Part shown: one piece after another, positions 10,214 through 47,924 of the stretch
How positions within the stretch are numbered: the stretch's first letter is position 1
Layout of the letters: the number at the start of each line of letters is the position of its first letter
NCBI GenBank assembly: GCA_964652095.1
Contig: CAZZAC010000001.1
Span: 9,258 to 73,257 of the forward strand
DNA: 64,000 nt
Direction of reading: 5' to 3'
DNA from: an uncultured Dehalococcoidales bacterium
GTDB lineage: Bacteria; Chloroflexota; Dehalococcoidia; GIF9; AB-539-J10
Notes under the pieces: generated by a model
Told to the model about the DNA's origin: nothing
What the model saw: the letters and a program-made list of their open reading frames with translations, nothing else
Databases searched by the model: none
Translations under genes and position numbers: made by a program

Positions 10214-10214
10214 G

Positions 10215-10640
10215 ATGGAGGAGATTCTAAACGCTATACCCCATCGTCCACCATTTCTGTTCGTCGATAGGATCATAGAATTAAGCGGAACAAAAATCAA
10301 AACAACGAAAGAGATAAAGCCTGATGAACCAGTTTTCGCAGGACACTACCCAGGACACCCGATCATGCCCGGGGCACTTATCTGTGAATCTATTTTCCAA
10401 ACAGGCGCAATTCTGCTCTCCAAAATGATGGGCGGTATGGGAGAAGGTATTCCTGTTTTGACCCGAATTAATAACGCCAAGTTCAAGAGTATCGTCAAGC
10501 CCGGCAATATCCTAGATATTGAAGCGGAGCTGGTGGAAAAAGTCAGTAACGCTTATTTTATGAAGGGCAAAGCCTCAGTCGCCGGAAAGACCTCGGTCAC
10601 GGTTGAGTTTACCGTCACCTTAGCTAAAGAGGCACCCTGA
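10215..10640 (+). CDS. beta-hydroxyacyl-ACP dehydratase (FabZ/FabA-like hotdog fold)
   Basis: 141 aa. PHRPPFLFVDRIIEL...GHYPGHPIMPGALICESIFQTGAILL is the FabZ signature. Starts 2 nt after the FabG stop. Confidence 0.8.
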   Translation: MEEILNAIPHRPPFLFVDRIIELSGTKIKTTKEIKPDEPVFAGHYPGHPIMPGALICESIFQTGAILLSKMMGGMGEGIPVLTRINNAKFKSIVKPGNILDIEAELVEKVSNAYFMKGKASVAGKTSVTVEFTVTLAKEAP

Positions 10641-10672
10641 CATATATTGGGAAGGGTGATAAGGAGTAACAT

Positions 10673-11473: not shown

Positions 11474-11480
11474 TAAGCCC

Positions 11481-12056: not shown

Positions 12057-12136
12057 GCTCTAGAGCCTAAACAAATTCAAAAGCCCAATTCAAAGTGGTA
12101 GGTCACTAGATATTTTTAGTGTTTCGAACTTTATAT

Positions 12137-15100: not shown

Positions 15101-16381
15101 TATTTCAAATATGGTGTCTACGGTCTCATCGATATCCAGTGTGGCCTTAGCCTGAGCAGTGATCTCATTAACTACTACATCAGCGCCGATGAAGTCCCCT
15201 GTAGAATAACGTGCACTGCCAGTGGTCGCCACAGCTTGGACTTCAATAAGGTCCTTTATTTCATGACCTATGTCTTTTAATCCTTTCTTAACTGACTCAA
15301 TGGGATTGCCCTCGGTCATGAGATACTTCATCGCCAGCAGCTTCTTGTTTTCATCCAGAATAACGATATTTGTACTAACAGCGCCAACATCAACCCCTAT
15401 ATACACCTTATTCTTTTGTTGCTTTCTAAGAATAGGACACTCATCCAATGGAGTAGAACCATCCCCGTTATAAATCAATCTCCTTAAATGCCCTACCTCA
15501 GCTTCACTGGCCTTTTTAGCTAAATAGCGCCTCAAGACCTCCGTTGCTACTTGAAGTCTGATAGGTGTGTCACTTTGTCTCTCCGAGGCCGTGATTGCCG
15601 CTCCGAAGGCTCCCATGACCTTAAAATACTCGGGAATAATCAATTCCCCAGGCTTGAGTTCTAGCAGTTCTTCAAAAGCCTTAGCCACCCCTTTATTGGC
15701 AGCGACGCCACCTTGAAAGGCTACTGGCTTTACGAATCTCCTCCCTTTACCTAAATTGCTTATGTAATTTCTAGCCAAGGCATAACAAAGCCCAGCTATT
15801 ATTTCTTCCTGTGATGTCCCCTCTTGCTGCAAATGGACCATGTCAGATTTGGCAAAGACACTGCACCTGCCCGCAATGGTAGCCGGCTTTTCAGCTCTCG
15901 TGGCTAAACTGCTGAACTCATCTATGGAAATCCCCAGACGATATGCCTGTTGATCAAGGAAAGAGCCAGTTCCCGCAGCGCATATCTCATTAAGGGCATG
16001 GTCAACGATGACTGTCCTTCTACTTTTTTCATCCCACTCCAGGAAAATCAGCTTTGAGTCCTGCCCTCCAATCTCGATAACTGTCCTAACCTCAGGATGG
16101 AAGTATGCGACAGCCTTTGCCTGAGTAATAATTTCATTTTCTTTATCTACACCCATGACATCAGCTATAAGGTTACGTCCGCTGCCCGTGCATACAGCCC
16201 CACATAGTTCAGGAAAATCTTTTTCGAGACCCTCAAAAACATCAATTAATACTGGAATAGGTTGCCCCCTTGTCCTCTCATAGACGCTTTCGAGGAGTCG
16301 GAGTTTCTCATCAATTACAGCTATGTTTAAGCTGACCGAGCCTATATCTATTCCCATAAAGGTTTTGCTTTGGCTTGTCAT
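12137..16381 (-). CDS. giant fusion protein: two BadF/BadG/BcrA/BcrD-type (HgdC-like) ATPase activase domains plus a C-terminal 2-hydroxyacyl-CoA dehydratase D-component-like (HgdB-like/DUF2229) region
   Basis: ORF 12137..16459. Two actin-fold ATPase modules (FMGIDIGSVSLNIAVID..., VYIGVDVGAVSTNIVILD...) are followed by a Cys-containing dehydratase-like region (CQHCPNHCD...). Start placed at Met27 (16381) because it forms an ATGA overlap with the stop of the upstream SRPBCC gene. Confidence 0.8.
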   Translation of the reverse strand: MTSQSKTFMGIDIGSVSLNIAVIDEKLRLLESVYERTRGQPIPVLIDVFEGLEKDFPELCGAVCTGSGRNLIADVMGVDKENEIITQAKAVAYFHPEVRTVIEIGGQDSKLIFLEWDEKSRRTVIVDHALNEICAAGTGSFLDQQAYRLGISIDEFSSLATRAEKPATIAGRCSVFAKSDMVHLQQEGTSQEEIIAGLCYALARNYISNLGKGRRFVKPVAFQGGVAANKGVAKAFEELLELKPGELIIPEYFKVMGAFGAAITASERQSDTPIRLQVATEVLRRYLAKKASEAEVGHLRRLIYNGDGSTPLDECPILRKQQKNKVYIGVDVGAVSTNIVILDENKKLLAMKYLMTEGNPIESVKKGLKDIGHEIKDLIEVQAVATTGSARYSTGDFIGADVVVNEITAQAKATLDIDETVDTIFEIGGQDSKYIRLKNGAVVDFEMNKVCAAGTGSFLQEQADRLDINIEEEFSKLALSSKAPVDLGTRCTVFMESDLIHHQQVGSPKVDLLAGLSYSIANNYIEKVVGNKKIGERICFQGGVAGNESVVAAFENILGKKITVPQNYNVTGAIGAALIAMERRHGDGKSDFVGFDLTDREYEVKSFECQHCPNHCDIKKISIGGEFKSFYGGICDRYELKGEKTADQVLPDLFKEREEMLMNYYKEDEFAPNSPVIGIPRVLMFFEQFPLWAAFFGELGVKVVLSDKTNRRLIHKGLQEVLAEACYPVKIAYGHVANLIEKGVDRIFLPSIIDLEKDSDDVARSYNCPLIQGIPFMLRPAFKDRAKIISPSIFMAKEKENLKREMKKIGREFGKETGEIASAITAAVKAQDEFERIRRERGQEILKTLTKDNEAVVVIGKPYNVHDLALNLNIAKKLRHLGMLAIPFDLLPLDRVELPPHYSNLVWKNEQNLLRAAMIAKNNPSLNPIMITNYGCGPDAFFWKYLEETMEEDPYLLLEVDEHSGDAGMTTRVEAFLDTLGRPKTRVKEERQEDLSVIRPSGGISIFKPTKRLRKLDKTFYIPYVSGHSVIWAAALNSVGLDARVLPEPDELSEEIGRRYVSGKECHPYLLTTGDLVKMTQLEDFDPDRAAFMMLNFDGSCRLSQYALSQKLVLKRLGLGHIPIVAPVASIRHDECTELFGLKWAEAVWKGWLATDVLLKKLLHIRPYEVNKGESDRVYAQAIEEIASGIINGKFWQALNRSIAAMDEIPTKNEDRPIIGIVGEFYTCMNSWSNNDIIREFESLGAEVRLGPTTTDYLVYFNEVYPETHFSSRKYLSALYYYLRRFPFMYWKGKIEGMMKDELRDCRIPRVEDVVTLAAPYVSDDIDPVVTVNVAKAKNYAMQGCSGIANLVILNCLYGTVSTAIYRGIQREHNRIPVLNMIYDGLKQTNAETRIEAFIHQAKLYTERYCAVRS

Positions 16382-35508: not shown

Positions 35509-36828
35509 TTGAATTACAGCCAGGCAGAAGAGTATCTCAATAGTTTTGTTAATTATGAGCAGATTCCGGGCATATCTTATGCCCAGCCTGGTTATAGCTT
35601 AAGACATGTAGAGGAGCTACTAAATCGTATGGGCAACCCTCAGTTGGCAGCCAGGACGATTCACATCGCAGGCACCAAGGGGAAAGGGAGTGTGGCAGCT
35701 ATGATTGCTCAGGTCTTAAGTGCTTCAGGCTATAAAACAGGGTTATATACCTCCCCCCACCTTCATAATCTAAGGGAGCGTATTAGCATAGATGGCACTC
35801 TAATTTCTGAAGCTGATTTTGCTGCAGCCATGGCTGAGGTCAAGCCTTTTATCGAATCAATGAAGCAGGACACTAGCCTCAGGCAGCTGACTTATTTCGA
35901 GGCATTGACTGCGCTGGCATTCGCTTATTTCCAGAAAAAGCGGGTGGACTTTCAAGTACTGGAAGTAGGTCTAGGTGGCAGCCTTGATGCTACTAATGTA
36001 GCCAGGCCTGTAGTTTGTATCATTACCCCTATCAGCCTGGACCATACTCAGATTCTGGGTAATAGCCTGGAGGAAATAGCTCGGGAAAAAGCAGGCATTA
36101 TCAAGTCCGGCTGCTGGGTGGTGCTTTCCCCCCAGCCAGAAGAGGCGGCTCCGGTAATCAGCGATATTTGTCGTGAGAAGGAAGCGAAGGTGGTTCAGGT
36201 AGGCAAGGAAATCACCTGGCATAAGATAGGCGGTGACCTCCATCATCAATCGCTGGCGATCGAGGGTAGAACAAGTAAATACCAGGTTAGCATTCCTCTT
36301 TTAGGCGATTACCAGCTTGAGAATGCCGCCACCGCTGTAGCTGCTCTAGAGATATTGGCTTCCGAGGGCTTTACCATCTCAGCCGCCGATATTGCTCAAG
36401 GGCTTGCCCGAGTTAAGTGGCCGGGGCGATTCCAAATTTTGCAGCAGCACCCTACGGTGTTGGTTGATGGAGCCCATAATGTAGCGTCGATGAGAAGCTT
36501 GGTGAGCAATATCAAAGCATACTTCAGTTACAAACGGATTTTCCTTGTTTTCGGGACATCCTGTGACAAAGACATACCGGGAATAGTGAATGAGCTGGTT
36601 TCCCTCTCCCCTCAAGTTATAGTTACACGGACAGCACATTCCCGTGCTGCCCCCCTTTCAACCCTGGCTGCCGAGTTCAGCAAGCGAGGCATTGAGCCTA
36701 AAACCGGAGAGACTGTAACCGAAGCTATATCCCGAGCTTTATCTCTGGCAGACAGGACAGATATTATCTGCGTTACCGGCTCTCTGTTTGTCGTGGCGGA
36801 AGCGTTAGATTATTTCTCGAGGGGCTGA
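35509..36828 (+). CDS. folC: bifunctional folylpolyglutamate synthase/dihydrofolate synthase
   Basis: 439 aa. The P-loop IHIAGTKGKGS and overall Mur-ligase-like organisation. Confidence 0.85.
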   Translation: MNYSQAEEYLNSFVNYEQIPGISYAQPGYSLRHVEELLNRMGNPQLAARTIHIAGTKGKGSVAAMIAQVLSASGYKTGLYTSPHLHNLRERISIDGTLISEADFAAAMAEVKPFIESMKQDTSLRQLTYFEALTALAFAYFQKKRVDFQVLEVGLGGSLDATNVARPVVCIITPISLDHTQILGNSLEEIAREKAGIIKSGCWVVLSPQPEEAAPVISDICREKEAKVVQVGKEITWHKIGGDLHHQSLAIEGRTSKYQVSIPLLGDYQLENAATAVAALEILASEGFTISAADIAQGLARVKWPGRFQILQQHPTVLVDGAHNVASMRSLVSNIKAYFSYKRIFLVFGTSCDKDIPGIVNELVSLSPQVIVTRTAHSRAAPLSTLAAEFSKRGIEPKTGETVTEAISRALSLADRTDIICVTGSLFVVAEALDYFSRG

Positions 36829-37082
36829 GTTTCAATAGGAGAGGCAAGGGCTTCTTTGGGTAACATATTGCCTAGAATTTGCTGGAGCGCCATGATGTGG
36901 CTACATGTCTCCCATTGGGAAAAGAAATGACAGGTACAATGCCATTTCCCATTGGCATAGCTTAGCTTGTGGTCATCGTTTTCACCATGGAAGACAGCGG
37001 TTAAACCTGAGAAAGTGACACGACCTGGTTCTTGAGCATACCTTTTGGCTTTTTCAATCTTCCCGATAAGGCTGGATCGCAT
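36810..37082 (-). CDS. small SWIM zinc-finger-like protein
   Basis: 90 aa. CTCHFFSQWETCSHI fits the CxCx(n)CxH SWIM pattern. Confidence 0.45.
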   Translation of the reverse strand: MRSSLIGKIEKAKRYAQEPGRVTFSGLTAVFHGENDDHKLSYANGKWHCTCHFFSQWETCSHIMALQQILGNMLPKEALASPIETQPLEK

Positions 37083-37934: not shown

Positions 37935-39632
37935 ATGAATTTAAAGGAGCTTATTTCGGTGGCCAGAGGGGAAATACCGGCTGATTTGCTCCTGAAAAAT
38001 GCCCGGATAGTAAATACTTTTGTTGGAGAAATAGAGCAAGCCGACGTGGCTATCTATGGCGATAGAATTGCCGGAGTAGGAGACTATGGTAAGGCCAAGG
38101 AAATTGTCGATTTACAAGGCAGGTTTTTAGCTCCCGGGCTGATTAACGGGCATACGCACATAGAAAGCTCTATGCTTCACCCGGCAAGGTATGCTCAGGC
38201 CGTGGTCCCCAGAGGCACTCTGGCTGTGGTCACCGACTTACATGAAATCGCCAACGTTTGTGGATTTGAAGGAATAAAATTCGTCACGGATTTGGCGCGA
38301 AAGCTCCCACTGGATATGCTATTCATGGCCCCTTCATGCGTGCCAGCAACCCATCTGGAGACATCAGGCGCCCGAATCAGCTCTAAGGAAGTAAAGAAAA
38401 TTCTAGCTCACCCTAATATAATCGGCTTAGGAGAGATGATGAACTTTCCCGGCGTGGTCAGTGGGGATGAAGAGGTTTTAAAGAAAATCAGTGCTTCAAA
38501 GGGCAAGGTTATTGATGGACACGCTCCGGGACTCGCTGGCAAGGAGCTAAATGCCTACTTGTCCGCTGGCATTCTTTCTGACCACGAATCCACTACGTTG
38601 GAAGAAGGGAGAGAGAAGTTGCGTCGGGGCATGTACCTGATGATTCGAGAGGGCTCTTCAGAGAAGAACCTGGACGCCCTTCTGCCTCTGGTTACCGATA
38701 ATACTTATAAAAGATGCTTCTTTGTGGTGGATGACCTTAGTTGCTTTGATTTACTTCGGGAAGGCGATATTGACGCTGTGGTACGAAAGGCTATTGACAG
38801 AGGCCTGGAGCCAATTCGCGCAATTCAGATGGCGACGATTAATACTGCTGAGTATTTCAGACTTTATGATAGAGGGGGCATTGGCCCGGGGTATATAGCC
38901 AACCTTATAACCATCACCGACCTGGCTAAATTAGAGATAGACATGGTGTTTTACCAGGGCAAGCTGGTGGCAAGGCAAGGCAAGCCCTTGTTCCCCTTGC
39001 CCCCTGTTACTCTGGAGCTAAGAGACACGGTACGCATTAAGCCTCCTATGGGGAAATCGCTGCAAATAGCCGCTGTCGATGAGACCTATCCAGTTATCGA
39101 AATCGTCCCCGGACAGATAGTCACCAAGAAGGCGGTGGAAAAGATGAAAGTTGTGGATTGGACAGTTATGCCCGATCTGGAGAGAGATATTCTGAAGCTG
39201 GTGGTGGTGGAACGGCACAAGGCTAGCGGCAATATCGGATTGGGATTAGTGAAGGGATTCGGCTTAAAGAAAGGAGCGTTAGCCTCGTCAGTGGCTCATG
39301 ACTCTCACAACATAATAGCGGTGGGTACCAATGACCTCGACATTCTTAAGGCAATTGAGGAAATTAATAGGCTGCAAGGCGGGCTGGTTGTTTGCGCCAA
39401 CCTGGAAATTCTCGCTTCTTTACCCTTGCCCATCGCTGGCCTGCTTTCCCCTGAGCCGCTGGAGGTAGTCGTGTCCCAGCATGAACAAGTGGAGAAGGCT
39501 GCCGCCAGCCTGGGGAACCTGCCTCCGGCTCCATTTGCCATCCTATCTTTCCTGGCATTGCCCGTGATTCCCGAACTCAGACTGACCGATTTAGGCCTGG
39601 TGGATGTGGTAGAGTTTAAGTTGCTCAAGTAG
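37935..39632 (+). CDS. ade: adenine deaminase
   Basis: 565 aa. Amidohydrolase metal site FLAPGLINGHTHIESSML and overall Ade length/organisation. Confidence 0.85.
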   Translation: MNLKELISVARGEIPADLLLKNARIVNTFVGEIEQADVAIYGDRIAGVGDYGKAKEIVDLQGRFLAPGLINGHTHIESSMLHPARYAQAVVPRGTLAVVTDLHEIANVCGFEGIKFVTDLARKLPLDMLFMAPSCVPATHLETSGARISSKEVKKILAHPNIIGLGEMMNFPGVVSGDEEVLKKISASKGKVIDGHAPGLAGKELNAYLSAGILSDHESTTLEEGREKLRRGMYLMIREGSSEKNLDALLPLVTDNTYKRCFFVVDDLSCFDLLREGDIDAVVRKAIDRGLEPIRAIQMATINTAEYFRLYDRGGIGPGYIANLITITDLAKLEIDMVFYQGKLVARQGKPLFPLPPVTLELRDTVRIKPPMGKSLQIAAVDETYPVIEIVPGQIVTKKAVEKMKVVDWTVMPDLERDILKLVVVERHKASGNIGLGLVKGFGLKKGALASSVAHDSHNIIAVGTNDLDILKAIEEINRLQGGLVVCANLEILASLPLPIAGLLSPEPLEVVVSQHEQVEKAAASLGNLPPAPFAILSFLALPVIPELRLTDLGLVDVVEFKLLK

Positions 39633-39643
39633 AATTAACTCCG
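39469..39643 (+). repeat. direct repeat, left copy (intact 3' end of ade)
   Basis: About 85% identical to 44294..44460 (eye alignment). Together they bracket a 4.65-kb accessory segment. Confidence 0.7.
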
Positions 39644-39664
39644 ATGCAATCGGAGTTTCCTATG
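39644..39664 (+). other. perfect 9-bp stem hairpin (aactccgat gcaa atcggagtt) immediately after the ade stop, at the left junction of the accessory segment
   Basis: Read directly. A near-identical hairpin (ctccgatgaaatcggag) occurs at 48196..48212. Confidence 0.4.
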
Positions 39665-39743
39665 CCGATTCTAGTTAGCGATAAATCCATTTCCCTTCAT
39701 TATATCTTCGCAGTTGTCAGCGGGTCGCCGATCAGCCGCGCCT

Positions 39744-40145
39744 TTATGCGTCGGCTGCAACGTCTTGTTGGGCGGTTATCTCTTCTTTCGGATTTGGACC
39801 GTATTTGTTGTCCCCAGGCTGGCTGTCTGTACAAGCGAGAACCAGAAACCAGATTGGGCCCGCAATCGGGATCAGATTTATCAACAAGTACCAACCGCTT
39901 TTCCCAACATCATGGAGCCGTCGAACCGATACGGCTAGCCCTGGAACAAAGACTGCGAGAGCATATAAAATAGATAATAGGCCAAGGCCAAATACTGCAA
40001 AGGTTAGTAGTCCGATGCCCAAGTCAATGAGAGAGGCCACAAGGCTGAAGATGAAATTGAAAAGAAAGAACATCCAGTATTCTTTCCGCCTCGCACGCCC
40101 ACTGAACACTGCATACTTTTTCAGCACTTTGATATACCAATTCAT
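39744..40145 (-). CDS. DUF805 domain-containing inner-membrane protein
   Basis: 133 aa. RARRKEYW followed by hydrophobic helices (YhaH/YhaI-like). Preceded by promoter-module copy R1. Confidence 0.7.
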   Translation of the reverse strand: MNWYIKVLKKYAVFSGRARRKEYWMFFLFNFIFSLVASLIDLGIGLLTFAVFGLGLLSILYALAVFVPGLAVSVRRLHDVGKSGWYLLINLIPIAGPIWFLVLACTDSQPGDNKYGPNPKEEITAQQDVAADA

Positions 40146-40345
40146 GTTGCTTCTCCTTTCGCTCGTTTGTCGTTTTGTCGGACGGCAAGCTGGATATTCT
40201 CGCTGTCCAACATCTATTCCTATACCTATTTCCTATACTTCTTCTATAGGCATGTACTATATGACAAGACAATATGAAATGTCAAGGATGAAATGTTAAG
40301 GACCTCTCTATTTAGATTGTGTTGCAATGTGAAGGATAATTAGAC
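40146..40345 (-). promoter_or_regulatory. conserved promoter/5'-UTR module, copy R1: -35 TTGACA (40285..40280), 18-nt spacer, -10 TATAGT (40261..40256), about 100-nt leader with hairpin cctatagaagaagtatagg and RBS AAAGGAG
   Basis: Blocks of this sequence recur at 43201..43290, 44125..44275 and 46299..46485, each immediately 5' of a different minus-strand gene. Confidence 0.55.
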
Positions 40346-40420
40346 CACATGTATCATTATTTGATCCGACTCACAGATCCAAATTGTTTGCCACCACAAC
40401 ACAAAGCTCTGTCTATTTCC

Positions 40421-41236
40421 TCATCCCGGTTTTCTGAATTCCAGACAATACCCATGATACTGACCATGCATTTTCCAAATACCGTCTACAAGTACCGCTT
40501 TCATTGTTTCTGGAACCAGATGAACAGGAACGGAGGTGTCTACTTTATTATCCTGACTTGAACGCGACAAACGAAGGAAACGAGCCACGGTTCGGGCTAC
40601 CTGTTCCGATTCATCAGCAATTACTATTTTACTTCCCGGTCGGGCAACACGGATCATCTCATCAATGGCCTTCTTCTTTTCAGAAAAAAAGTTGATCCCA
40701 CCAACGTGAAAAACACTGTCAAATGAGTCCGATTTAAAAGGCAACTCCTCTGCCTTCCCCAAGAAAAGGTCTACCGGCCATCCTCGGGTCGTGACCAACC
40801 TGTGACAATTAGTCAGCTGCGCCGCTGAGATGTCCAGGCCATATATGTCACCCACTTTTGGAGACTCAAATAGGTAAGGAAGATTACCACCAGACCCTAT
40901 CGAAACCTCCAGAACTCGTCCATTGTTTAGTTCCAATCTGTGCAAAATCTCTGTGCGGGCCTTACGTTCTCCACCCATAGGCAAAAACGATAACCTATCA
41001 ATAATTGTTTCGAAACGTGAAAATCTATTATAGAATCGAGCGAACCGTTGGTTAAGACCCTCCAGTTCCTGTAAATCGATAAAGTGCACAATGCCGTTTT
41101 TAATGATATAGCTTCTTTCACAGTGCGAGCAAAACAACTCCCCCTCATTCCCACTTGTATTACCTGATTCATCGCGAAGTGTAAGTTCAGTTTGACAACC
41201 AGGACAACATAGCAACTCTAATGTTGAGCGCTTCAT
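40421..41236 (-). CDS. Trm112-like zinc-ribbon / class I SAM-dependent methyltransferase fusion
   Basis: ORF 40421..41251, start at MKRS. N-terminal LELLCCPGCQ...LFCSHC zinc ribbon, then a Rossmann-fold MTase region (LEVSIGSGGN...YGLDIS). Confidence 0.65.
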   Translation of the reverse strand: MKRSTLELLCCPGCQTELTLRDESGNTSGNEGELFCSHCERSYIIKNGIVHFIDLQELEGLNQRFARFYNRFSRFETIIDRLSFLPMGGERKARTEILHRLELNNGRVLEVSIGSGGNLPYLFESPKVGDIYGLDISAAQLTNCHRLVTTRGWPVDLFLGKAEELPFKSDSFDSVFHVGGINFFSEKKKAIDEMIRVARPGSKIVIADESEQVARTVARFLRLSRSSQDNKVDTSVPVHLVPETMKAVLVDGIWKMHGQYHGYCLEFRKPG

Positions 41237-41317
41237 TGCTATTCCTCCCAAGCTATTATGTTTTGGTCTAACGTCTGAAATCAGAGGCGGCTGTAAGCCG
41301 TCCGCTAGAATGAATTG

Positions 41318-41491
41318 TTATGTCAGTTCTTTCAAGATATGCCGGGCAAGATATTCATCTATTTCGTTATGCCTCGGAACGGGCTGCTTTTTACCTGTGG
41401 CAGGATTTTTGTATAGGTCGTGACGAGGCCCATGTCTCACAAGAATGCACCCTGCGTCAGATAGCCTCTTGATGAGGTCTTTCCTCCTCAT
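41318..41491 (-). CDS. hicA: HicA-family mRNA interferase toxin (57 aa; not in the supplied ORF track because it is shorter than 60 aa)
   Basis: Hand translation of the minus strand gives MRRKDLIKRLSDAGCILVRHGPRHDLYKNPATGKKQPVPRHNEIDEYLARHILKELT, the HicA/YcfA pattern (..GW..VR..GSHH.F.HP...VP.H...I). Its ATG overlaps the upstream stop as ATGA. Confidence 0.6.
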   Translation of the reverse strand: MRRKDLIKRLSDAGCILVRHGPRHDLYKNPATGKKQPVPRHNEIDEYLARHILKELT

Positions 41492-41697
41492 ACTGATAAC
41501 TTAAGTTCTTTAACCAGATGCTCATCTGGTACGTCTTCCATCGTCATCAGTGCATAGGCATCTTTCATATTATCTTCAAGTTCTTCTAATGTTTTCCCCT
41601 GCGTCATTATCTCAGGGTGTTCAAGTAACTTCCCTACCCAGAATTTCTCACCTCTCCAGTAAATCATGTTTAATTTAGTTTCCATTTTCTGCCTCAC
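41488..41697 (-). CDS. hicB: HicB-like (UPF0150) antitoxin
   Basis: 69 aa small acidic protein (..YWRGEKFWVGKLLEHPEIMTQGKTLEELEDNMKDAYAL..), translationally coupled to hicA. Confidence 0.5.
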   Translation of the reverse strand: MRQKMETKLNMIYWRGEKFWVGKLLEHPEIMTQGKTLEELEDNMKDAYALMTMEDVPDEHLVKELKLSV

Positions 41698-41824
41698 AAA
41701 ATCCCTTTTAGTATCTTAGCATAGTTTACTGAATTTCGGAGACACTATACTTAATTCCAAAGAGTATTTTGCCTCCTCATCTACATCAAGAGACAAGCAT
41801 AGCGTGCCCTTAAATGTGATACCT

Positions 41825-42409
41825 TTAATCATCACGTAAACCGGTATTCCTTTGCTCCAGCTTTAGCAATCGTTTCTTAACGGACAATCCACCCCCATAT
41901 CCAACAAGCTCTCCGTCACTCCCGATTACCCGATGGCAGGGAACGATTATGCTGATGGGGTTTGTCCTGTTAGCATTACCAACCGCTCGAACAGCCCTTG
42001 GACTGCCAATATCCTTTGCTATTTGTCCATATGTGGACGTGGCTCCGTAGGGAACTCTCATCAATGCCTTCCAGACTCTTCTCTGAAAATCCGTCCCCGC
42101 CATGAGCAGAGGAATGTCAAACTCTTTTCTATTTCCGTTGAGGTACTCATCAAGTTGTTTTCTCGTTTTCTCCAGGACTTCATCCTTTTGCTCGACAAAC
42201 TCGGCATCCAGTTTCTTCCTGATCCAGTCATCAATTGCTCTCCTTCCCTTTTTGTCTCCGAACCCGAGCAGACAGAGCTTGCCGCCGAAAGAACCAAGTA
42301 CCAGTTCGCCGATCTCAGTCTTGTGACGTTGAATGTTGACCTGGTTTATTCTTGCCTCCAAAGAATGTTGTCGGCGACGTGCAGTGTCGCTGCAGTGTCT
42401 TGCGTCCAT
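41825..42409 (-). CDS. ogt: methylated-DNA--protein-cysteine methyltransferase (Ogt/MGMT)
   Basis: ORF 41825..42499. Active-site motif PCHRVIG and DNA-binding helix YGQIAKDIGSPRAVRAVGNANRTNPISIIV. Start uncertain (no canonical start after the upstream gene's stop); Met31 chosen, giving a 64-bp overlap with the upstream methyltransferase gene. Confidence 0.7.
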   Translation of the reverse strand: MDARHCSDTARRRQHSLEARINQVNIQRHKTEIGELVLGSFGGKLCLLGFGDKKGRRAIDDWIRKKLDAEFVEQKDEVLEKTRKQLDEYLNGNRKEFDIPLLMAGTDFQRRVWKALMRVPYGATSTYGQIAKDIGSPRAVRAVGNANRTNPISIIVPCHRVIGSDGELVGYGGGLSVKKRLLKLEQRNTGLRDD

Positions 42410-43152
42410 GGTTCGCCCGTCTTGCGTGCCACGATCATGATTTCCATCTCGTCCAGGTCGAGTGTCCTTCTTCCCCAGCTCCCGGCAGTTCCACCCCATA
42501 TGCTGAGGACAGACATACCGGCGATCTGGAGCAGGAGACGTAACTCCGTCGGGACGAAAGACCGTTCTCGAACGGCAATACGAGGCAGTCCTTCTTGCGG
42601 CGGGTGCTCCGACGATTCGACCATGGTTATCGGGTCGAATCGTCCCTCAGCCACGTCCTTGTTTTGATACCTGCGGAGCATGGCTGCTGCGTTGAGAACG
42701 GTGAATACGACCTTCGCCCCTGTTTTCAGGCTTTGGGAGATGTTGCGGAGAATGGCCAGTGGTTGACTTATGGGATCATCAGTCTGACTGAGAAGTCCCA
42801 AAGCCCCTTCGCATAGGCAGATCGCCGCATCGAACTTTTCCGGGAACGCGAACTGCGTTGCATCTGAGCGGACCCATTCTACCTTCACGTTTTCGGCTTC
42901 GGCTTTAGTCGCTGCCTTTGCCAGCATCTCCGCGGATAAGTCCAGTCCTGTTACTGAGTAACCGCGTTTAGCAAGTTCTATGGAATGCCGGCCCGTCCCA
43001 CACCCGACATCCAGAACTGAGTCGCCGGCCTTGAGTTCCAGTTCCTCGAGCAAGAAGTCTACCTCGTCGACTGTGTTCTTGGTGAAGACGTTATTATCGT
43101 AGATCGGTGCGTGAGCGTCAAAGAACTGCTCCCATGTCGTTTTCTCTTGCAT
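42346..43152 (-). CDS. class I SAM-dependent methyltransferase
   Basis: ORF 42346..43200. VLDVGCGTGRHSIELAKRGYSVTGLDLS. Start moved to Met17 (MQEKTTW) because AAGGAG lies 5 nt upstream and the -10 of module R2 would otherwise overlap the first ATG. Confidence 0.7.
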   Translation of the reverse strand: MQEKTTWEQFFDAHAPIYDNNVFTKNTVDEVDFLLEELELKAGDSVLDVGCGTGRHSIELAKRGYSVTGLDLSAEMLAKAATKAEAENVKVEWVRSDATQFAFPEKFDAAICLCEGALGLLSQTDDPISQPLAILRNISQSLKTGAKVVFTVLNAAAMLRRYQNKDVAEGRFDPITMVESSEHPPQEGLPRIAVRERSFVPTELRLLLQIAGMSVLSIWGGTAGSWGRRTLDLDEMEIMIVARKTGEPWTQDTAATLHVADNILWRQE

Positions 43153-43200
43153 CTTTGCTCCTTCTGTAAACCTGTCAGTCCACCTCTTGTGTATAGGCAT

Positions 43201-43290
43201 CTACTCTATAGCGACGCTGTATGAGGTGTCAAGGGTTTCTCTATTTAGGTTGTTTTGAGGTGTGAGGGATAATTCGGTGTAACGGAAAAT
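43201..43290 (-). promoter_or_regulatory. conserved promoter module, copy R2 (truncated leader): -35 TTGACA (43232..43227), 16-nt spacer, -10 TATAGA (43210..43205)
   Basis: Upstream block (gggataattcggtgtaacg...ctaaatagagaaacccTTGACA) matches the R1 and R3 upstream blocks. Confidence 0.5.
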
Positions 43291-43338
43291 ATCACTGGCG
43301 CGCTCTTGCACGTCCGGTGCATGCGCTTGTTCGACGTG

Positions 43339-44124
43339 TCATATGGTTATCACGCCTTCCAAATAGAGTACTGCCTTACCAGAAATCTTTACTCGATCTC
43401 CGGCATGGACGCAGAACAACTCGCCACCGCGCTTCGATATCTGAAATGCATGCAGATTCTTCTTGTGGAGTTCGCCCGCCCAGTATGGAGCCAGAACACA
43501 ATGCGCAGAACCTGTCACCGGGTCCTCCGGTATCCCAACCCGGGGGGCGAAAACTCTTGAGACGAAGTCGCTCCGACTTCCCCTGGATGTCACGATGATG
43601 CCACGACACTCAACCCGCTCAAGCGCAAAAAAATTGGGCTGAAGTTCCCGAACAGCTTCCTCGTTCTCCAGTACCACAAGTAAACCTTCGACGGAACCCA
43701 GTATTGCGATTGGTGTCACACCAAGTGCCTCCTTCAAGCCAGACGGCGGAATCCAGCTATGGACGGGTCTGGAGGGAAAATCCATTTCCAGAAGACCATC
43801 GCGTTTACAAACGATGAGTTGCCCGCTTTTCCGCGTATGGAAACGGATTTCCTCTTCCGACCAGTCTTGGCAGGCGAAAAGGACAAAGGCGCTCGCCAGT
43901 GTTGCGTGCCCGCAAAGCGCAACTTCAGTCGTTGGAGTGAACCATCGGAGGTCAAACCCGTCGTCATTGCGAACGAGGAAGGCGGTCTCTGACAAGTTAT
44001 TCTCGGCAGCGATGGACTGAAGCATGTTATCGTCGATCCACGAATCCAGTATGCAAACAGCGGCCGGATTACCCGAGAAGACTTCGGAGGTAAAGGCATC
44101 AACCTGGTAGATGGGTATTTTCAT
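43339..44124 (-). CDS. PhzF-family (phenazine-biosynthesis-like) isomerase
   Basis: 261 aa. N-terminus MKIPIYQVDAFTSEVFSGNPAAVC is characteristic of the PhzF/YddE family. Confidence 0.8.
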   Translation of the reverse strand: MKIPIYQVDAFTSEVFSGNPAAVCILDSWIDDNMLQSIAAENNLSETAFLVRNDDGFDLRWFTPTTEVALCGHATLASAFVLFACQDWSEEEIRFHTRKSGQLIVCKRDGLLEMDFPSRPVHSWIPPSGLKEALGVTPIAILGSVEGLLVVLENEEAVRELQPNFFALERVECRGIIVTSRGSRSDFVSRVFAPRVGIPEDPVTGSAHCVLAPYWAGELHKKNLHAFQISKRGGELFCVHAGDRVKISGKAVLYLEGVITI

Positions 44125-44275
44125 TATTCTCGTTCTTTCTTCGCCGAATATCTATTTTTGTATCTATTTTCTATGCTTATTCTATAGGCACGTACTGTAT
44201 GACGAGGCGTTATGAAATGTCAATGGTTTCCCCATTTAGGTCGTGTTGAAATGTGAGTTATGACTCGATGCGGTA
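44125..44275 (-). promoter_or_regulatory. conserved promoter/5'-UTR module, copy R3: -35 TTGACA (44223..44218), 18-nt spacer, -10 TACAGT (44199..44194)
   Basis: Same architecture and sequence blocks as R1; immediately 5' of the PhzF-family gene. Confidence 0.55.
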
Positions 44276-44293
44276 TTTATAGTGATATAGTTG

Positions 44294-44460
44294 TATCCCA
44301 GCATGAATAAGTAGAGAAAGCTGCCGCCAGCCTGGGTAACTTGCCCCCAGCACCCTTTGCCCTCCTTTCCTTCCTAGCCCTGCACGTGATTCCCGAACTC
44401 AGACTGACTGATTCAGGCCTGGTGGACGTGGCAGAGTTTAAGTTGCTCGAGTAGAACTAA
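44294..44460 (+). pseudogene. direct repeat, right copy: degenerate fragment of the ade 3' end (in-frame stop after SQHE)
   Basis: About 85% identical to 39469..39643, including the gene's last codons and stop (..gagtttaagttgctcRagtag). Confidence 0.7.
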
Positions 44461-44551
44461 CATGATAACGCCCGCGCTCAGCGGTAAATTGCGAGCGGCT
44501 ACGCGAGCAATTTGTCCGGCTGCAGCGCCTTGTTAGGGCGCCTTGGCATAT

Positions 44552-44947
44552 CTATAGATTCTCCAGCGCTTTGCCAATGCGTTTTTTATCTGCATTATCA
44601 GCGAATACTTTCAGTGCTCGTACCATTGCCTCGGTCATTTCCCCAATATTCCAGCCTTTAGTCTCTGGTGTGACTTTCATTCGAGCATATGTTAGATGGG
44701 CTACCTCTTTGCCAGTGCGAGATCGAGCCGGTTCCAACGCTGCTGGAAAATCAGGACGAACTTTTTTCCACTGTTCTGCAGAGCTGAAGAAGTCACATGC
44801 TATCGCATCATCTTTCCGAACATTTGACGGCTCCCAAATAAAGTCAATTAATGCCCTTAAGTGAATTGTGAATGACTCTAAGAGGGCGTTGATAACAAAC
44901 TGAGAATTGTTTGGCTGAGATAGCCCTTTTGCGGCGCCTACCATCAT
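44552..44947 (-). CDS. hypothetical protein (131 aa), no recognisable family
   Basis: ORF with GAGG 5 nt before ATG ATG; lies in the accessory array. Function unknown. Confidence 0.45.
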   Translation of the reverse strand: MMVGAAKGLSQPNNSQFVINALLESFTIHLRALIDFIWEPSNVRKDDAIACDFFSSAEQWKKVRPDFPAALEPARSRTGKEVAHLTYARMKVTPETKGWNIGEMTEAMVRALKVFADNADKKRIGKALENL

Positions 44948-45248
44948 GTTGACCTCATAAGCTAGGTGCTCTCCGCAAATTCCTTTAACTCCTCATCAGA
45001 TGGAATCTCTCTAGGCATTTGGTAATCCCTCGCACCTCGCTGACGTCCGAGTTCAGGAGCGCCAAGGGTGATATGCGAACCGGCCCTTTGCGGCAACCCA
45101 AGTTACTTTGGATTATGGCAGATTAGCATAGGATTGTAAACTGGACATGTTATTGCCCTCTTGCCGCAAAGCTGCATCGGAACGACTTTCGGAAGCAACT
45201 TTGTGGCCCAAGGGAGGAGCGCCCTTAGCAGTCGGTTTCAAAGAGTTG

Positions 45249-46298
45249 TTAGCCAGCACATGGTTTTGTCCAGTCTCTGCTACTTTCTTCAACGTCAAAT
45301 CGAATTGGATCAGACACATAAGCTGCTGCAAACTGTGCATTGCACACTACCTCGCAAGGTGTGACATTCGGGTTCTGGATAGTAAAAAGCGTTGGTCGAA
45401 AGTCCCACGTATCGGGTCCCAATTTGTCAAAAGCTATCCCAAACTTCTTCAATGGACAAGCAGTCTGGCCAATCCACGCACAGATGATATTTGTCTTTTC
45501 TTTTACCTTTGGCCTATTTAATGCCAATCCGGGAGTTACTCTGATACCCCTTTGGCTGAGTTGATCGAGTGTTTCACACAATGCTCCTGCTACGAGATCA
45601 GGAATCGCAATGAAATCTTCGATTTCTAATGAGCCACCGTCTATTTCTGAAAGCCCAAATACAATGCGGTTAATGCTTTCCTGAGGCATAAACATTCTTA
45701 TTGTTGCTTCTGCGAATCTACCAAAAAGTTGTTTGTGTTCTTCGTTAGCAACTATCGGATCGCTGTCGGTGAACCAGACAATGTTTTGCTCATTGGAAAA
45801 TACCGTTGCTATTACTTGTGCTCCAAAGTGTACTACTCTTAACATGTTTTCCAGTGTACTTTTCTTGATTGCAGAAAGTGCCGGCTTTACCTCAAGGAAC
45901 TGTTCCGCGAACATGTATTTCATCTTGGTATCAACTGCAAATGTAACTAGTAATCTATCCATTGCGCCTGCGCAAGACAAAAAAGCTGGCAGAGCTCTCA
46001 GTTTTATCCTGTCGTTGAGCCCCTTATACGACATTCTACGGCTCTTCAGATGAAAATCATCCCTGAGCATTTTTCTAGCACCATTGAAATAATCAGCACC
46101 AGAACGTCCAACAACCAAGAAGCTGTAGGTTTGATATCTCCCGTGGACACGACTGTAGTCTGAGAAGACAAAGAGTGTTTTGTCCTTAGACAAGTCTGGT
46201 ATTAACGAGGGATTCTTCCATGCTTCTGCGACTATCATGTCGCAAATATAGTTAATGAATCCCGCTCTTTCATCTCCAGGGCGTCGTATTTTGGCCAT
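45249..46298 (-). CDS. hypothetical protein (349 aa), no recognisable family; loose PD-(D/E)xK-like spacing (TDSD...EEHK) noted only as speculation
   Basis: Long ORF preceded by promoter-module copy R4; clean start MAKIRRPG. Confidence 0.5.
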   Translation of the reverse strand: MAKIRRPGDERAGFINYICDMIVAEAWKNPSLIPDLSKDKTLFVFSDYSRVHGRYQTYSFLVVGRSGADYFNGARKMLRDDFHLKSRRMSYKGLNDRIKLRALPAFLSCAGAMDRLLVTFAVDTKMKYMFAEQFLEVKPALSAIKKSTLENMLRVVHFGAQVIATVFSNEQNIVWFTDSDPIVANEEHKQLFGRFAEATIRMFMPQESINRIVFGLSEIDGGSLEIEDFIAIPDLVAGALCETLDQLSQRGIRVTPGLALNRPKVKEKTNIICAWIGQTACPLKKFGIAFDKLGPDTWDFRPTLFTIQNPNVTPCEVVCNAQFAAAYVSDPIRFDVEESSRDWTKPCAG

Positions 46299-46485
46299 GC
46301 CCTTCTCTTTTGTATTCGCAGCTAGAGATCAAATTGTTCAACAGTTATGTTGGATAGTGTATTTCCAGCGAAAAGACATTGAGTGTCCGATTGCGATATC
46401 CTGCTGGCTAACATCTATTTTATACCTATTTTCTATACTTACTCTATAGGCATGTACTGTATGACGAGGCACAGCAAAGTGCAGG
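46299..46485 (-). promoter_or_regulatory. conserved 5'-UTR/-10 module, copy R4 (-10 TACAGT at 46461..46456; -35 side replaced because the module abuts the glyQS 3' end)
   Basis: Leader block acatctattttatacctattttctatactt.ctctataggcatgtactgtatgac is nearly identical to R1 and R3. Confidence 0.5.
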
Positions 46486-46489
46486 ATTC

Positions 46490-47818
46490 TCACTTCTGCC
46501 TTGTGGCCCATAATGCTGAGGCGTCGAAAGCCTCTCCTTTGAGTTTGGCCTCTAATATCTTCCCTAGTTCCTCTACGGGCACTCGAATTTGCGCCAGGCT
46601 GTCCCTCTCCCGGATGGTAACCTGCTTATCCTCCAGGGATTCAAAATCTATGGTAACGCAGAACGGGGTGCCGATTTCGTCCTGACGTCTGTACCTCCGC
46701 CCTATGCTTTGTGAATCATCGTAATCGGTCACGAAATTTGGACACAGTTTGTTGAAAACCTCTTTAGCCAGAGGGGTTAATTTTTCATTCCTGCTTAAGG
46801 GCAAAACAGCTACCTTAATAGGAGCCAGAGAACGGTGCAGGTGTAGAACTGTTCTCTTTTCCCCTTCGACTTCCTCTTCATCATAGGCATCGATGAGAAA
46901 AGCCAGGACAGAGCGGTCGACGCCAGCCGAGGGCTCAATAGCATAGGGAACGTACTTCTCGCCAGCCTCAGCATCATAGTAACCGAGCTCTTTACCGCTA
47001 TGCTTGGCATGCTGAGTAAGGTCAAAATCGCCCCTGTTGGCTATACCCTCCAGCTCTGACCAGCCCATAGGAAATAGATACTCGATGTCATAGCAGTCCC
47101 TGGCATAGTGGGCGAGCTCATCTTTGCCGTGCTGGCGCAGGCGAAGATTTTCCTTCCTGACACCCAGTTTGACATACCAGTCAAACCTCTCCTTGACCCA
47201 GTAATCAAGCCACTCTTCGTCAGTCCCGGGCTTAACGAAGTACTCCAGCTCCATGTGCTCAAACTCCCTGGTTCTGAATATGAAGTTGCCTGTGGTGATT
47301 TCATTGCGGAAAGATTTGCCTATCTGGGCGATGCCCAAAGGCAACTTTTTTCTGGAAGTGGTGATTACATTATCAAAGTTAACGAATATGCCCTGGGCAG
47401 TTTCGGGGCGGAGGTAGATTGTGCTTGCCTCCTCCTCCACAGGACCCATAGAAGTCTTAAACATCAAGTTGAACATGCGGGGCTCGGTTAGCTCACCATC
47501 ACATTTGGGACATCTCTTGCCCTCTATTTCGTTAGCGCGCCACCTCAGGTGGCAAGATTTACACTCTACCAGGGGGTCTGTGAAGCTATCAATGTGGCCG
47601 CTAGCGGCCCAGACTCCGGGGTGCATCATTATTGATGTGTCCAGACCTACTACATCATCCCGCTCGTGGACTATTGACTTCCACCAGGCGTCTCTAACAT
47701 TGCGCTTAAGCTCCACCCCCATAGGGCCATAATCCCAGCAGCTAGCTAAACCGCCATATATTTCGCTGCTGGGGAAAACAAGCCCCCTCCGCTTACACAG
47801 AGAGACGATTTTATCCAT
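46490..47818 (-). CDS. glyQS: glycine--tRNA ligase (alpha2 homodimeric type)
   Basis: ORF 46490..47899. Class II aaRS motifs (FRNEITTGNFIFRTREFEHMELEYF). Start moved to MDKIVSLCKRRGLVFPSSEIYGG, the conserved GlyRS N-terminus. Confidence 0.85.
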   Translation of the reverse strand: MDKIVSLCKRRGLVFPSSEIYGGLASCWDYGPMGVELKRNVRDAWWKSIVHERDDVVGLDTSIMMHPGVWAASGHIDSFTDPLVECKSCHLRWRANEIEGKRCPKCDGELTEPRMFNLMFKTSMGPVEEEASTIYLRPETAQGIFVNFDNVITTSRKKLPLGIAQIGKSFRNEITTGNFIFRTREFEHMELEYFVKPGTDEEWLDYWVKERFDWYVKLGVRKENLRLRQHGKDELAHYARDCYDIEYLFPMGWSELEGIANRGDFDLTQHAKHSGKELGYYDAEAGEKYVPYAIEPSAGVDRSVLAFLIDAYDEEEVEGEKRTVLHLHRSLAPIKVAVLPLSRNEKLTPLAKEVFNKLCPNFVTDYDDSQSIGRRYRRQDEIGTPFCVTIDFESLEDKQVTIRERDSLAQIRVPVEELGKILEAKLKGEAFDASALWATRQK

Positions 47819-47924
47819 ATCCACTTTAGCGGGCATCTTCAGGTCTCCTTTCTCCGATGCATCGGAGCTTAGCTTACCAGCTTTATTCACAGGCGTCAAA
47901 GGGTTGTCTTCCTTCAGTACCTGA

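Follow-up and report, generated by a model that had tools for sequence, protein, structure and literature searches.

A displaced adenine deaminase 3' end in a variable ade-glyS gene array of an uncultured Dehalococcoidales bacterium

Does a second copy of the end of a housekeeping gene mark the edge of an integrated island, or does it have another origin? In the 64-kb window, which is the whole stretch of DNA that was analysed, the 3' end of the adenine deaminase gene ade recurs downstream of the gene, and the original prediction read this as the footprint of site-specific integration into a protein-coding gene. In this study, the two copies were compared with each other and with related loci of uncultured Dehalococcoidia.

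The two copies of the ade 3' end

The core gene ade (37935-39632, plus strand; 565 aa; PF01979 and PF13382) forms the left flank of the region, and its synteny with hpt is kept in more than 100 related loci. A repeat search and alignment delimited a single ungapped direct repeat of 174 nt, the copies of which, A1 (39466-39639, plus strand) and A2 (44288-44461, plus strand), are 86% identical and are spaced 4,822 nt start to start, with 4,648 nt between them; the repetition of the ade terminus, stop codon included, was therefore correctly recognized. When the region was compared with the entire window by self-BLAST, these two copies alone were returned (E = 2.5e-54), and a repeat-derived 23-mer had two matches in the real sequence versus none in shuffles.

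A1 is the functional 3' end of ade (167 coding nt with the TAG stop, plus 7 nt) and represents the resident allele; it is 97.7% identical to L083, a same-species contig from the nearest strain, 95.4% identical to L090, and 94.8% identical to L084. A2, the homology of which may begin at 44284, reads VVSQHE* in the ade frame, with a CAA-to-TAA change at the equivalent of position 39486, and no open reading frame (ORF) of at least 50 aa overlaps it. A2 is a displaced, nonfunctional ade 3' end, as degenerate as had been proposed.

The copies have 23 coding differences, 15 of them at third codon positions and one a nonsense change; by codon, 17 are synonymous and 6 are nonsynonymous. The best allele matches of A2 reach only 90 to 91%, and A2 and the downstream DNA (orf131) are collinear, at 93%, with L102, in which the ade-orf131 junction is intact. 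Because the differences are mostly synonymous, because no allele exceeds 90.8% identity to A2, and because of the collinearity with L102, A2 comes from a different ade allele and not from duplication in place. Nor is the arrangement an assembly artifact, since independent contigs from four JGI samples and two Logan runs match at 100% identity over a 501-nt stretch that takes in the PhzF start, repeat G3, A2, and downstream DNA. The arrangement is unchanged in all eight contigs with an exact copy of orf349 or orf131.

The variable array between ade and glyS

The gap between ade and glyS (39633-46489) is variable throughout. Its right flank is the core gene glyS (46490-47899, minus strand), which encodes a class II GlyRS with tRNA-synt_2b and HGTP_anticodon domains. 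In approximately 38 related arrays, from loci with at least 82% Ade identity, the gap ranges from 446 bp (L001) to approximately 7 kb; in outgroup loci (L010, L116-L118, L120, L122-L124, L129, L131, and L134), it is 2 to 50 bp. These near-empty and empty sites confirm that the segment is accessory. The arrays hold approximately 90 ORF families, nearly all on the minus strand, in modules of one to four genes each, many of them preceded by a promoter-like repeat (G or H) that they have in common; about 90% of the modules are co-oriented, in the same direction as glyS.

Seven minus-strand genes sit between A1 and A2, and their predicted identities were borne out by Pfam, apart from HicB, which has no Pfam match and was identified from the 4-nt overlap of its gene with hicA. 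The DUF805 module (39744-40145; PF05656) is found beside glyS in L004 and beside ade in L106. The Trm112-methyltransferase module (40410-41306, gene 40421-41251; PF03966 and PF08241) has the same boundaries in 12 loci, where it abuts ade directly. It is followed by a toxin-antitoxin pair (41318-41697), hicA (41318-41491; PF07927) and hicB (41488-41697), of which hicB by itself abuts ade in L111 and L115. The ogt (41825-42361; PF01035) and SAM methyltransferase (42346-43152; PF13649) genes, called from L081, make up a module (41825-43152) that is contiguous with PhzF in L095. The PhzF module (43281-44281, gene 43339-44124; PF02567) includes upstream repeat G3 (44147-44281) and has the same boundaries, with other neighbors, in L088, L090, and L093. 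Beyond A2, ORF analysis and comparison with related arrays revealed two further accessory minus-strand genes (44552-46298), orf131 (44552-44947) and orf349 (45249-46298), neither with a match to Pfam or PADLOC. Among the arrays compared, orf131 also lies straight after ade in L102 and after the Trm112-methyltransferase gene in L101, and orf349 is confined to the window strain; homologues of the latter are spread over many phyla, and its fold weakly resembles that of RNase H.

The window modules recur singly or in changed order, with unchanged boundaries. Partial sets are present in relatives without the ade duplication: PhzF alone (L088 and L090), ogt-methyltransferase-PhzF (L095), Trm112-methyltransferase-hicAB (L083), and DUF805 (L106 and L004). 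The original prediction had named the occurrence of all seven genes without the duplication as evidence against integration; subsets were found in that state, but never all seven together. Because the genes are found singly or differently combined in arrays without an ade duplication, and because the DNA beyond A2 is equally accessory, the 4.65-kb interval does not constitute a single island, and A2 marks the seam between two sub-arrays, not the boundary of a single integrated element.

Repeat searches and self-BLAST located further copies of G, all on the minus strand: G1 (40193-40341), upstream of DUF805 and with a promoter-like site (TTGACA-N18-TATAGT, 11/12 matches); G2 (43192-43279), a partial copy upstream of the methyltransferase gene; and G4 (46395-46489), a truncated copy that abuts the glyS stop codon at a position also filled in L002, L005, L083, and others. 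Repeat H (41730-41816, minus strand) is 87 nt long, with terminal inverted repeats of 13 bp. The 39 copies of G and the 29 copies of H occur only within ade-glyS arrays, in a single orientation and at module boundaries, and may act as promoters.

A 9-bp hairpin with a 3-nt loop, AACTCCGAT-GCA-ATCGGAGTT (39637-39657), lies just 3' of the ade stop and had been taken as a mark of the left junction. That role is not upheld: the hairpin is also present in the near-empty L001 site and has been kept by compensatory change (97.5% of cells paired across nine alleles, with one UA-to-CG compensatory pair), and on these grounds we regard it as native ade-downstream sequence, probably a terminator common to the converging genes. 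Comparison with related loci defined a conserved ade-proximal spacer, the T-piece (39640-39723), with breakpoints that gather at 39640, 39677, and 39723. T-piece sequence directly follows ade in L001, L084, L088, L090, and L105; in L083, it is shifted downstream of an inserted module, where it lies 3' of an 18-bp repeat.

That repeat, CAAGTAGAATTAA[C/G]TTGA, is present on both sides of the Trm112-methyltransferase-hicAB-H block of L083 and is the shortest of the orphan ade ends in other arrays; L108, with up to three, has orphans of approximately 117 and 67 nt, and the same 67-nt fragment is found in L095. The fragments start at differing ade positions, and since they differ in length, there is no fixed crossover point. 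Most module junctions have no ade fragment. In the window, L083, L095, and L108, an orphan ade end directly follows the exact outer boundary of G or H, and several different junction types fall 5 to 11 nt from the ade stop.

Origin of the displaced end

Since ade and glyS are mosaic among strains, and since glyS, which for most of its length is 99% identical to L083, drops to 95% and then 85% identity in its final windows beside the array, homologous recombination is, judged from these alignments, active at the locus. We postulate, with a probability of roughly 0.55, that array content passes between strains by homologous recombination, with ade or glyS as the anchor, and that an occasional illegitimate join leaves an orphan ade end. 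The short stretch between ade and glyS, two converging core genes, has become a module hotspot in one clade. In this scheme, crossovers would fall in the 3' parts of ade and glyS, which are the conserved flanks, and probably also in the shared repeats, and A2 would be a by-product of an exchange with homologous recombination at only one end and an illegitimate join at the other. An "ade 3' end-orf131-orf349" block from a strain with an L102-like array could have entered anchored in glyS, its ragged left end being attached at the outer end of the PhzF module; alternatively, an "ade-...-PhzF-G3" block could have entered anchored in ade, its right end being joined 174 to 178 nt before the resident stop. 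Both routes fit, as either would yield a functional ade, a first sub-array, the orphaned 3' end of another allele, and a second sub-array. The pathway would be homology-facilitated illegitimate recombination, which has been invoked to explain the orphaned 3' ends that displacement produces in rhs and type VI secretion system (T6SS) effector-immunity loci (Kirchberger et al. 2017, PMC5361080).

Orphan ends on exact G or H boundaries would not be expected of random illegitimate ends. A site-specific process fits better here, because of those boundaries, the junctions 5 to 11 nt from the ade stop, the approximately 90% co-orientation, and the confinement of G and H to the arrays. The orientation-locked G and H repeats at module boundaries leave room for a dedicated recombination system.

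One such process, which we consider unlikely, is that a 4.65-kb integrative island entered an attB site in the ade 3' end by means of a tyrosine or serine recombinase, bringing a replacement 3' end, so that A1 and A2 are attL and attR; the integrase would have been lost or would act in trans, as in a CIME-like element made by accretion. The direct duplication of a target-gene 3' end with a dead distal copy, the bunching of junctions just after the ade stop, the 18-bp repeats around the L083 block, and the recurrence of orphan ends, which in L108 resembles tandem accretion at one att site, are all in its favor. However, Pfam identified no recombinase, integrase, resolvase, or transposase among 30 window ORFs and roughly 50 representative cassette proteins from the approximately 38 arrays, precomputed Pfam matches for 27.4-49.6 kb of the window contained none either, and none was found in the annotated flanks of related arrays, in line with the absence of an integrase or recombinase from the window that had been reported. 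Moreover, A1 matches the resident allele of L083, a strain without the "island," which an element-borne end should not do, and no empty or excised form of the A1-A2 segment was present among same-strain contigs. The variable start points of the orphans, the fragment-free junctions, and the occurrence of the seven genes apart from one another argue in the same direction. Of the integration proposal, the displaced dead ade end and the accessory DNA stand; the single unit, the fixed crossover point, and the recombinase are not supported.

Somewhat less likely still is a dedicated cassette-capture platform, integron-like but noncanonical, in which G, H, and the ade-stop site would be recombination sites for a recombinase encoded elsewhere and the orphan ade ends would be secondary-site events. 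The array-confined, singly oriented G and H repeats, the terminal inverted repeats of H, and the orphan ends abutting exact outer ends of G or H would suit it, as would cargo like that of chromosomal integrons (GNAT proteins, cupins, toxin-antitoxin pairs, and many unknowns) and the existence of integrons in Chloroflexi (Cury et al. 2016, PMC4889954). Against it, no intI or other recombinase is nearby, and the repeats are promoter-like and 5' of genes, in contrast to 3' attC sites. The H termini (GAATTTC...TTAATTGC) are not of the attC type (RYYYAAC...GTTRRRY), and a G|TT rule that suits some junctions (the ade end and the PhzF tail) fails at H boundaries. In the H stem, 85.5% of cells are paired, with weak covariation (30 of 500 shuffles score at least as high), and no consensus structure was predicted by RNAalifold. 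A hybrid-looking H copy in the window, as would arise from a crossover within the repeat, fits ordinary homologous recombination.

In-place (tandem or segmental) duplication followed by decay, or an assembly chimera of two strains, would account for a pair of same-strand direct copies but is strongly disfavored. A dead copy that decayed neutrally would not acquire such a synonymous excess; the identity of A2 to A1 (86%) is no higher than that to other strains' alleles (up to 91%); and independent JGI and Logan assemblies, representing at least six samples, agree at the junction with 100% identity.

Relationship to known variable loci

The minimal mobile elements of Neisseria and similar hotspots are strain-variable regions between core genes that lack mobility genes. 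Like the ade-glyS array, they have conserved flanking genes, different whole-gene cassettes in each strain, no integrase or transposase, and mosaic flanks that indicate homologous recombination; unlike them, the ade-glyS array has up to nine genes in five or six modules, its own orientation-locked G and H families, and orphaned flank fragments. Integrative elements that target gene 3' ends and accrete in tandem include ICESt1, ICESt3, and CIMEs at fda in Streptococcus thermophilus, as well as the ssrA-specific genomic islands of Dehalococcoides mccartyi. These share the direct repeat of a target 3' end, the restored functional gene, and the serial repeats (as in L108), whereas the ade-glyS arrays have no integrase among the proteins scanned, repeat lengths of 18 to 174 nt, and inter-repeat DNA that is incoherent as an element.

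Chromosomal integron arrays and CALINs (PMC4889954) likewise contain many small, co-oriented, mostly uncharacterized genes, with similar repeats of approximately 90 to 150 nt between genes, strain-variable content, and similar cargo types; they differ in that the ade-glyS array has no intI, lacks canonical attC core motifs, carries its repeats upstream of genes with promoter-like sites, and is bounded by two housekeeping genes. The rhs, CDI, and T6SS effector-immunity arrays (PMC5361080, in which Jackson et al. 2009 is cited for 3'-end, or C-terminal, displacement arrays) also have a constant gene body followed by orphaned 3' ends with their own downstream genes. Their orphans come from other strains' alleles by horizontal transfer and not by duplication, there are no mobility genes, and the proposed mechanism combines homologous anchoring with an illegitimate join. 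In contrast to those arrays, the displaced end here belongs to a housekeeping enzyme and is conserved, not polymorphic, there is no toxin-immunity logic to drive retention, and most junctions are orphan-free.

In conclusion, we have shown that the ade-glyS spacer is a hotspot that carries small accessory modules, which are shuffled from array to array.

Two copies of the ade 3' end

The 3' end of the adenine deaminase gene, ade, recurs 4.65 kb downstream, as the original prediction had stated. Repeat searching and alignment defined a direct repeat of 174 nt (39466-39639 and 44288-44461) with 86% identity and no gaps, ending 7 bases past the ade stop codon, and BLAST comparison of the region with the entire window returned only these two copies (E = 2.5e-54). 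The first copy, A1, comprises the terminal part of the 565-amino-acid enzyme, its TAG stop, and the 7 bases, and ade is intact. The second, A2, had been called degenerate, and it is dead: in the ade frame it reads VVSQHE*, no ORF of at least 50 amino acids in the window ORF calls covers it, and it did not prove to be part of a functional gene. The seven minus-strand genes expected between the copies are also there, encoding DUF805, a Trm112-methyltransferase, HicA and HicB, Ogt, a SAM methyltransferase, and PhzF. A 501-nt stretch spanning the PhzF-A2 junction was 100% identical in contigs of four JGI samples and two Logan runs; therefore, the junction is not an assembly artifact. Metagenomes in which this strain occurs include JGI 3300031368, 3300031280, 3300031643, and 3300031586 and runs SRR8556611, SRR8556706, and SRR8556696.

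Of the 167 coding positions, 23 differ between A1 and A2, and 15 of these are third codon positions. By codon, 17 differences are synonymous and 6 are nonsynonymous, one of the latter being a nonsense change. Most of the divergence therefore predates the orphaning of A2, when both copies lay in working ade genes of different lineages, and a decayed local duplicate was ruled out on the same ground. A1, judged by its sequence, is the resident allele; it is 97.7% identical to that of the nearest strain (L083), 95.4% to that of L090, and 94.8% to that of L084. The best match of A2 among the sampled alleles was 90.8%, and no donor lineage was identified among them. A2 and the DNA downstream of it (44288-45198) are collinear, at 93% identity, with the intact junction between ade and the accessory gene orf131 in a related locus, L102. 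It follows that A2 is the orphaned remnant of an ade gene formerly located directly before orf131.

Traces of another neighbor were seen at these junctions. In L111 (6791-7005) and L115 (11696-11910), hicB alone abuts ade, with the two stop codons 2 nt apart; hicA is gone, which leaves an orphan antitoxin. In L102 (11732-11745), some nine bases from the 3' end of hicB (ACTGATAAC) remain past the ade stop, and the window carries a near-identical sequence, ATGATAAC, directly after A2 (44462-44471). Given this remnant in both places, the ade-orf131 junction seems to be derived from an older ade-hicB junction.

A 9-bp hairpin had been placed at the left junction. It is present (39637-39657), but it belongs to the native sequence downstream of ade, which is found, hairpin included, in the near-empty locus L001. 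Across nine alleles, 97.5% of the stem cells are paired; the changes include one compensatory pair, UA to CG, and others compatible with wobble pairing. Most simply, the hairpin would be a terminator between converging genes and not the junction of an element.

An accessory-gene hotspot between ade and glyS

The window belongs to an uncultured lineage of Dehalococcoidia. Relatives were collected through close Ade homologues, an exact look-up of the window Ade protein having given no match. In the closest species representatives, Ade is 83 to 89% identical, and metagenomes hold many contigs at 92 to 99%. The gene order hpt-ade ... glyS, with ade and glyS convergent, is kept across these relatives. 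When they were checked for an empty ade-glyS site, the spacing was 2 to 50 bp in an outgroup clade (Ade identity of 72 to 81%), and in the clade with Ade identity of at least 82% the gap ranged from 446 bp, in the near-empty L001, to approximately 7 kb. About 90 ORF families occupy some 38 arrays; most were seen once, and roughly nine-tenths lie on the minus strand. The cargo includes GNAT proteins, cupins, AbiV, a Bpu10I restriction-modification pair, DUF4145, an AAA_15 ATPase, MFS and MatE transporters, an M20 peptidase, ACAD/ETF, several SAM methyltransferases, and many unknowns.

The original prediction treated the 4.65 kb as one island, and this part did not hold. The genes between A1 and A2 occur singly or in other combinations: the L083 array, whose ade and glyS are 99 to 100% identical to those of the window over most of their length, consists of Trm112MT-hicA-hicB and two other genes; L088 and L090 have only PhzF in the gap; ade is followed by ogt-MTase-PhzF in L095 and directly by orf131 in L102; and DUF805 adjoins glyS in L004. 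The DNA between the copies was not found behaving as a single unit with a precise empty site, and no form with an ade-orf131 deletion was present among contigs of the same strain. The variable DNA also runs past A2, where orf131 (44552-44947, minus strand) and orf349 (45249-46298, minus strand) are as variable as the DNA between A1 and A2. Clusters of homology breakpoints in the window, at 39640, 39723, 40410, approximately 41274-41306, 41491, 41730, 41816, 43281, 44281-44288, 44465, 46408, and 46486, define five or six modules.

One class of cargo recurs. Genes for DNA-alkylation repair comprise ogt in nine arrays, an AlkD-like PF08713 protein, and an HhH-GPD glycosylase, with adjoining SAM-dependent methyltransferases; such cargo was seen in L004, L018, L095, L100, L104, L105, L110, L111, and L115 and at 41825-43152 of the window. 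The hotspot may have alkylation repair and methyltransferases as a functional theme.

Neither orf131 nor orf349 had a Pfam or PADLOC match. A suspected relationship of orf131 to the AbiV protein of L002 was not borne out by comparison. Homologues of orf349 that are 55 to 75% identical occur in Cyanobacteria, Bacteroidota, Acidobacteria, Anaerolineae, Planctomycetes, and Firmicutes, as single genes amid toxin-antitoxin or defense-like genes in the two genomic contexts checked. Six aspartates, D47, D96, D178, D180, D228, and D234, are invariant among them. The AlphaFold model is confident (pLDDT of 83, pTM of 0.88) and its similarity to RNase HII/HIII is weak (E of approximately 1e-3); a profile search gave no PDB sequence match. 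The product may be an uncharacterized nuclease. Among the arrays compared, orf349 was found only in that of this strain, and it therefore cannot be a general cassette recombinase.

Two further observations concern the locus. In L084 (Ga0209979_1001950, 10187-13330; Ade identity of 98%), the order after ade is two small ORFs, a G repeat (described below), a truncated PhzF gene, and then cysS, not glyS; this is either a genuine rearrangement at the hotspot or a chimeric contig. Between folC and hpt, an ORF of 90 amino acids rich in Cys and His (36810-37082, minus strand) is 86 to 90% conserved in all close relatives; the precomputed annotation assigns it no Pfam family.

Array-specific repeats and further orphan ends

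Two repeat families, G (39 copies) and H (29 copies), were found in loci L001 to L115, inside ade-glyS arrays only and always in one orientation. The window has four G copies (40193-40341, 43192-43279, 44147-44281, and 46395-46489) and one H copy (41730-41816), which looks like a hybrid of two H subtypes; hybrids in which the proximal part of G is fused to H also exist. Both families lie 23 to 100 nt upstream of minus-strand start codons, and G bears TTGACA-N18-TA(T/C)AGT, a match to a sigma-70-like promoter. The 87-nt H repeat has inverted repeats of 13 bp at its termini; paired by hand, the 13-bp stem is 85.5% paired with weak covariation, and RNAalifold predicted no consensus structure for H. 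The repeats move with the gene downstream of them; for example, ogt is accompanied by its H in four arrays, each time beside a different neighbor. The patterns for H and for the gene-proximal part of G were both absent from the viral contigs searched. G and H are candidate promoters, leaders, or recombination sites.

Orphan ade ends are not confined to the window. L108 (Ga0307432_1000003) has a functional ade end and two orphan 3' ends of approximately 117 and 67 nt, with possibly a third of approximately 20 nt (ade-end positions 11565-11738, approximately 13480-13500, 13599-13665, and approximately 15800-15900); each orphan is closed by a stop codon and followed by a different gene set. The 67-nt orphan is shared with L095 (13878-13938). 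In L083, an 18-bp repeat, CAAGTAGAATTAA[C/G]TTGA, stands on both sides of the Trm112MT-hicAB-H block, after which the native ade-downstream piece resumes. In the window, L083, L095, and L108, the orphan ends directly follow the outer end of a G or H repeat (H in the case of L095). Their starts differ (approximately 174, 117, 67, and 18 nt before or around the stop), which gives no constant crossover, with later erosion possible. A left boundary shared by the 117-nt fragment of L108 and A2 was refuted by alignment. Most module junctions lack any ade fragment, and no common motif emerged from the 210 non-redundant homology breakpoints listed.

Origin of the orphaned end and its relation to known systems

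The feature is an orphaned gene end within an integrase-free accessory-gene hotspot; the original observation is thus confirmed, and its interpretation is supported in part. Its flanks, ade (37935-39632) and glyS (46490-47899), are fine-scale mosaics. In sliding 150-nt windows against L083 to L115, identity to the same partner alternates between approximately 100% and 85 to 90%, and at the array end of glyS identity to L083 falls from 99% to 95% to 85%, as at a breakpoint. This mosaicism indicates, on sequence comparison, frequent homologous recombination in this population, which is therefore active in the flanks and able to swap array content. We envision that array content is exchanged between strains in this way and that homologous anchoring in ade or glyS, combined with an illegitimate join at the other end, would leave an orphan ade end; the seam between A2 and the G copy upstream of PhzF (44147-44281) would require one such non-homologous join. 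We favor this mechanism, with a probability of roughly 0.55. The agreement of A1 with L083 tips the balance slightly toward import of the A2-orf131-orf349 block.

An integrase acting in trans, with accretion of successive elements, is an unlikely source. A direct repeat derived from the 3' end of a target gene, with ade kept intact and A2 dead, is what the integration footprint of the original prediction would leave; however, the DNA between the repeats is not one unit, variable DNA continues past A2, and the orphan ends have no constant crossover position. As the original prediction had stated for the window, no tyrosine or serine recombinase was detected in the ORFs scanned there or in the precomputed annotation, which spans 27.4 to 49.6 kb, nor was any integrase, resolvase, or transposase among some 50 cassette proteins scanned from the 38 or so related arrays. 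The window has no tRNA or tmRNA gene and therefore no tRNA-type att site, and no Rfam family was detected in 39300-46800 at an E value of ≤1.

It is rather improbable that the ade-glyS spacer is a dedicated, previously undescribed cassette platform, in which G, H, and a site at the ade stop are recombined by an enzyme encoded elsewhere and the orphan ade ends are footprints of off-target or secondary-site events. In that reading, each cassette would bring its own promoter, and the platform would be a counterpart of the integron in which the logic is inverted. The orphan ends do coincide with exact repeat boundaries, junctions cluster within 5 to 11 nt of the ade stop, and G and H are locked in orientation; these features are poorly explained by homologous anchoring with an illegitimate join and so keep both site-specific explanations in contention. 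Local duplication or an assembly chimera is scarcely credible, given the mostly synonymous differences between A1 and A2 and a PhzF-A2 junction identical in six samples or runs.

Neither intI with attI nor two or more canonical attC sites were found (no recombinase; attC judged by motif inspection). By the same inspection, the H termini are GAATTTC...TTAATTGC, and G lacks an RYYYAAC/GTTRRRY pair. An integron-like G|TT junction rule fitted the ade end and the PhzF tail, failed at the H boundaries, and was dropped. The arrays resemble integrons and CALINs in the co-orientation of their genes (approximately 90%); however, repeats in those systems lie 3' of promoterless ORFs, whereas G and H lie upstream of their genes and carry promoter-like hexamers. 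The likeness to hotspots of the minimal-mobile-element type includes conserved flanks (hpt-ade ... glyS) around a variable content of 446 bp to approximately 7 kb, no mobility genes among the proteins scanned from the variable region (approximately 50), mosaic flanks, and the drop in identity at the array end of glyS. The arrays also recall the displaced 3' ends of rhs and type VI secretion loci, for which homologous anchoring with an illegitimate join has been proposed (PMC5361080): an end orphaned from another allele (A2) is followed by its own downstream genes, beginning with orf131, and L108 has further orphan ends. Those loci encode polymorphic toxin domains and immunity genes, whereas the ade 3' end encodes a conserved enzyme domain (PF13382) and the genes downstream of the displaced ends are unrelated accessory genes. 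The feature is a variation on two known themes, the displacement of 3' ends and the hotspot driven by homologous recombination, and the locus also bears an unexplained repeat system.

A gene end can become duplicated in an att-like manner in a hotspot of this kind even though no integrase was detected, which calls for caution when islands are sought by their flanking direct repeats. Should G and H be true recombination sites, the cassette system would be of a new kind; should they serve only as promoters common to the modules, the locus still offers a clean case, found in nature, of 3'-end displacement at a site other than a toxin locus. Uncultured Dehalococcoidia are abundant in sediments and aquifers, and to our knowledge little is known of how they exchange accessory genes. 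At the locus described here, small modules for defense, DNA repair, and methyltransferases are turned over frequently between strains at a single intergenic site where no mobility gene is visible.
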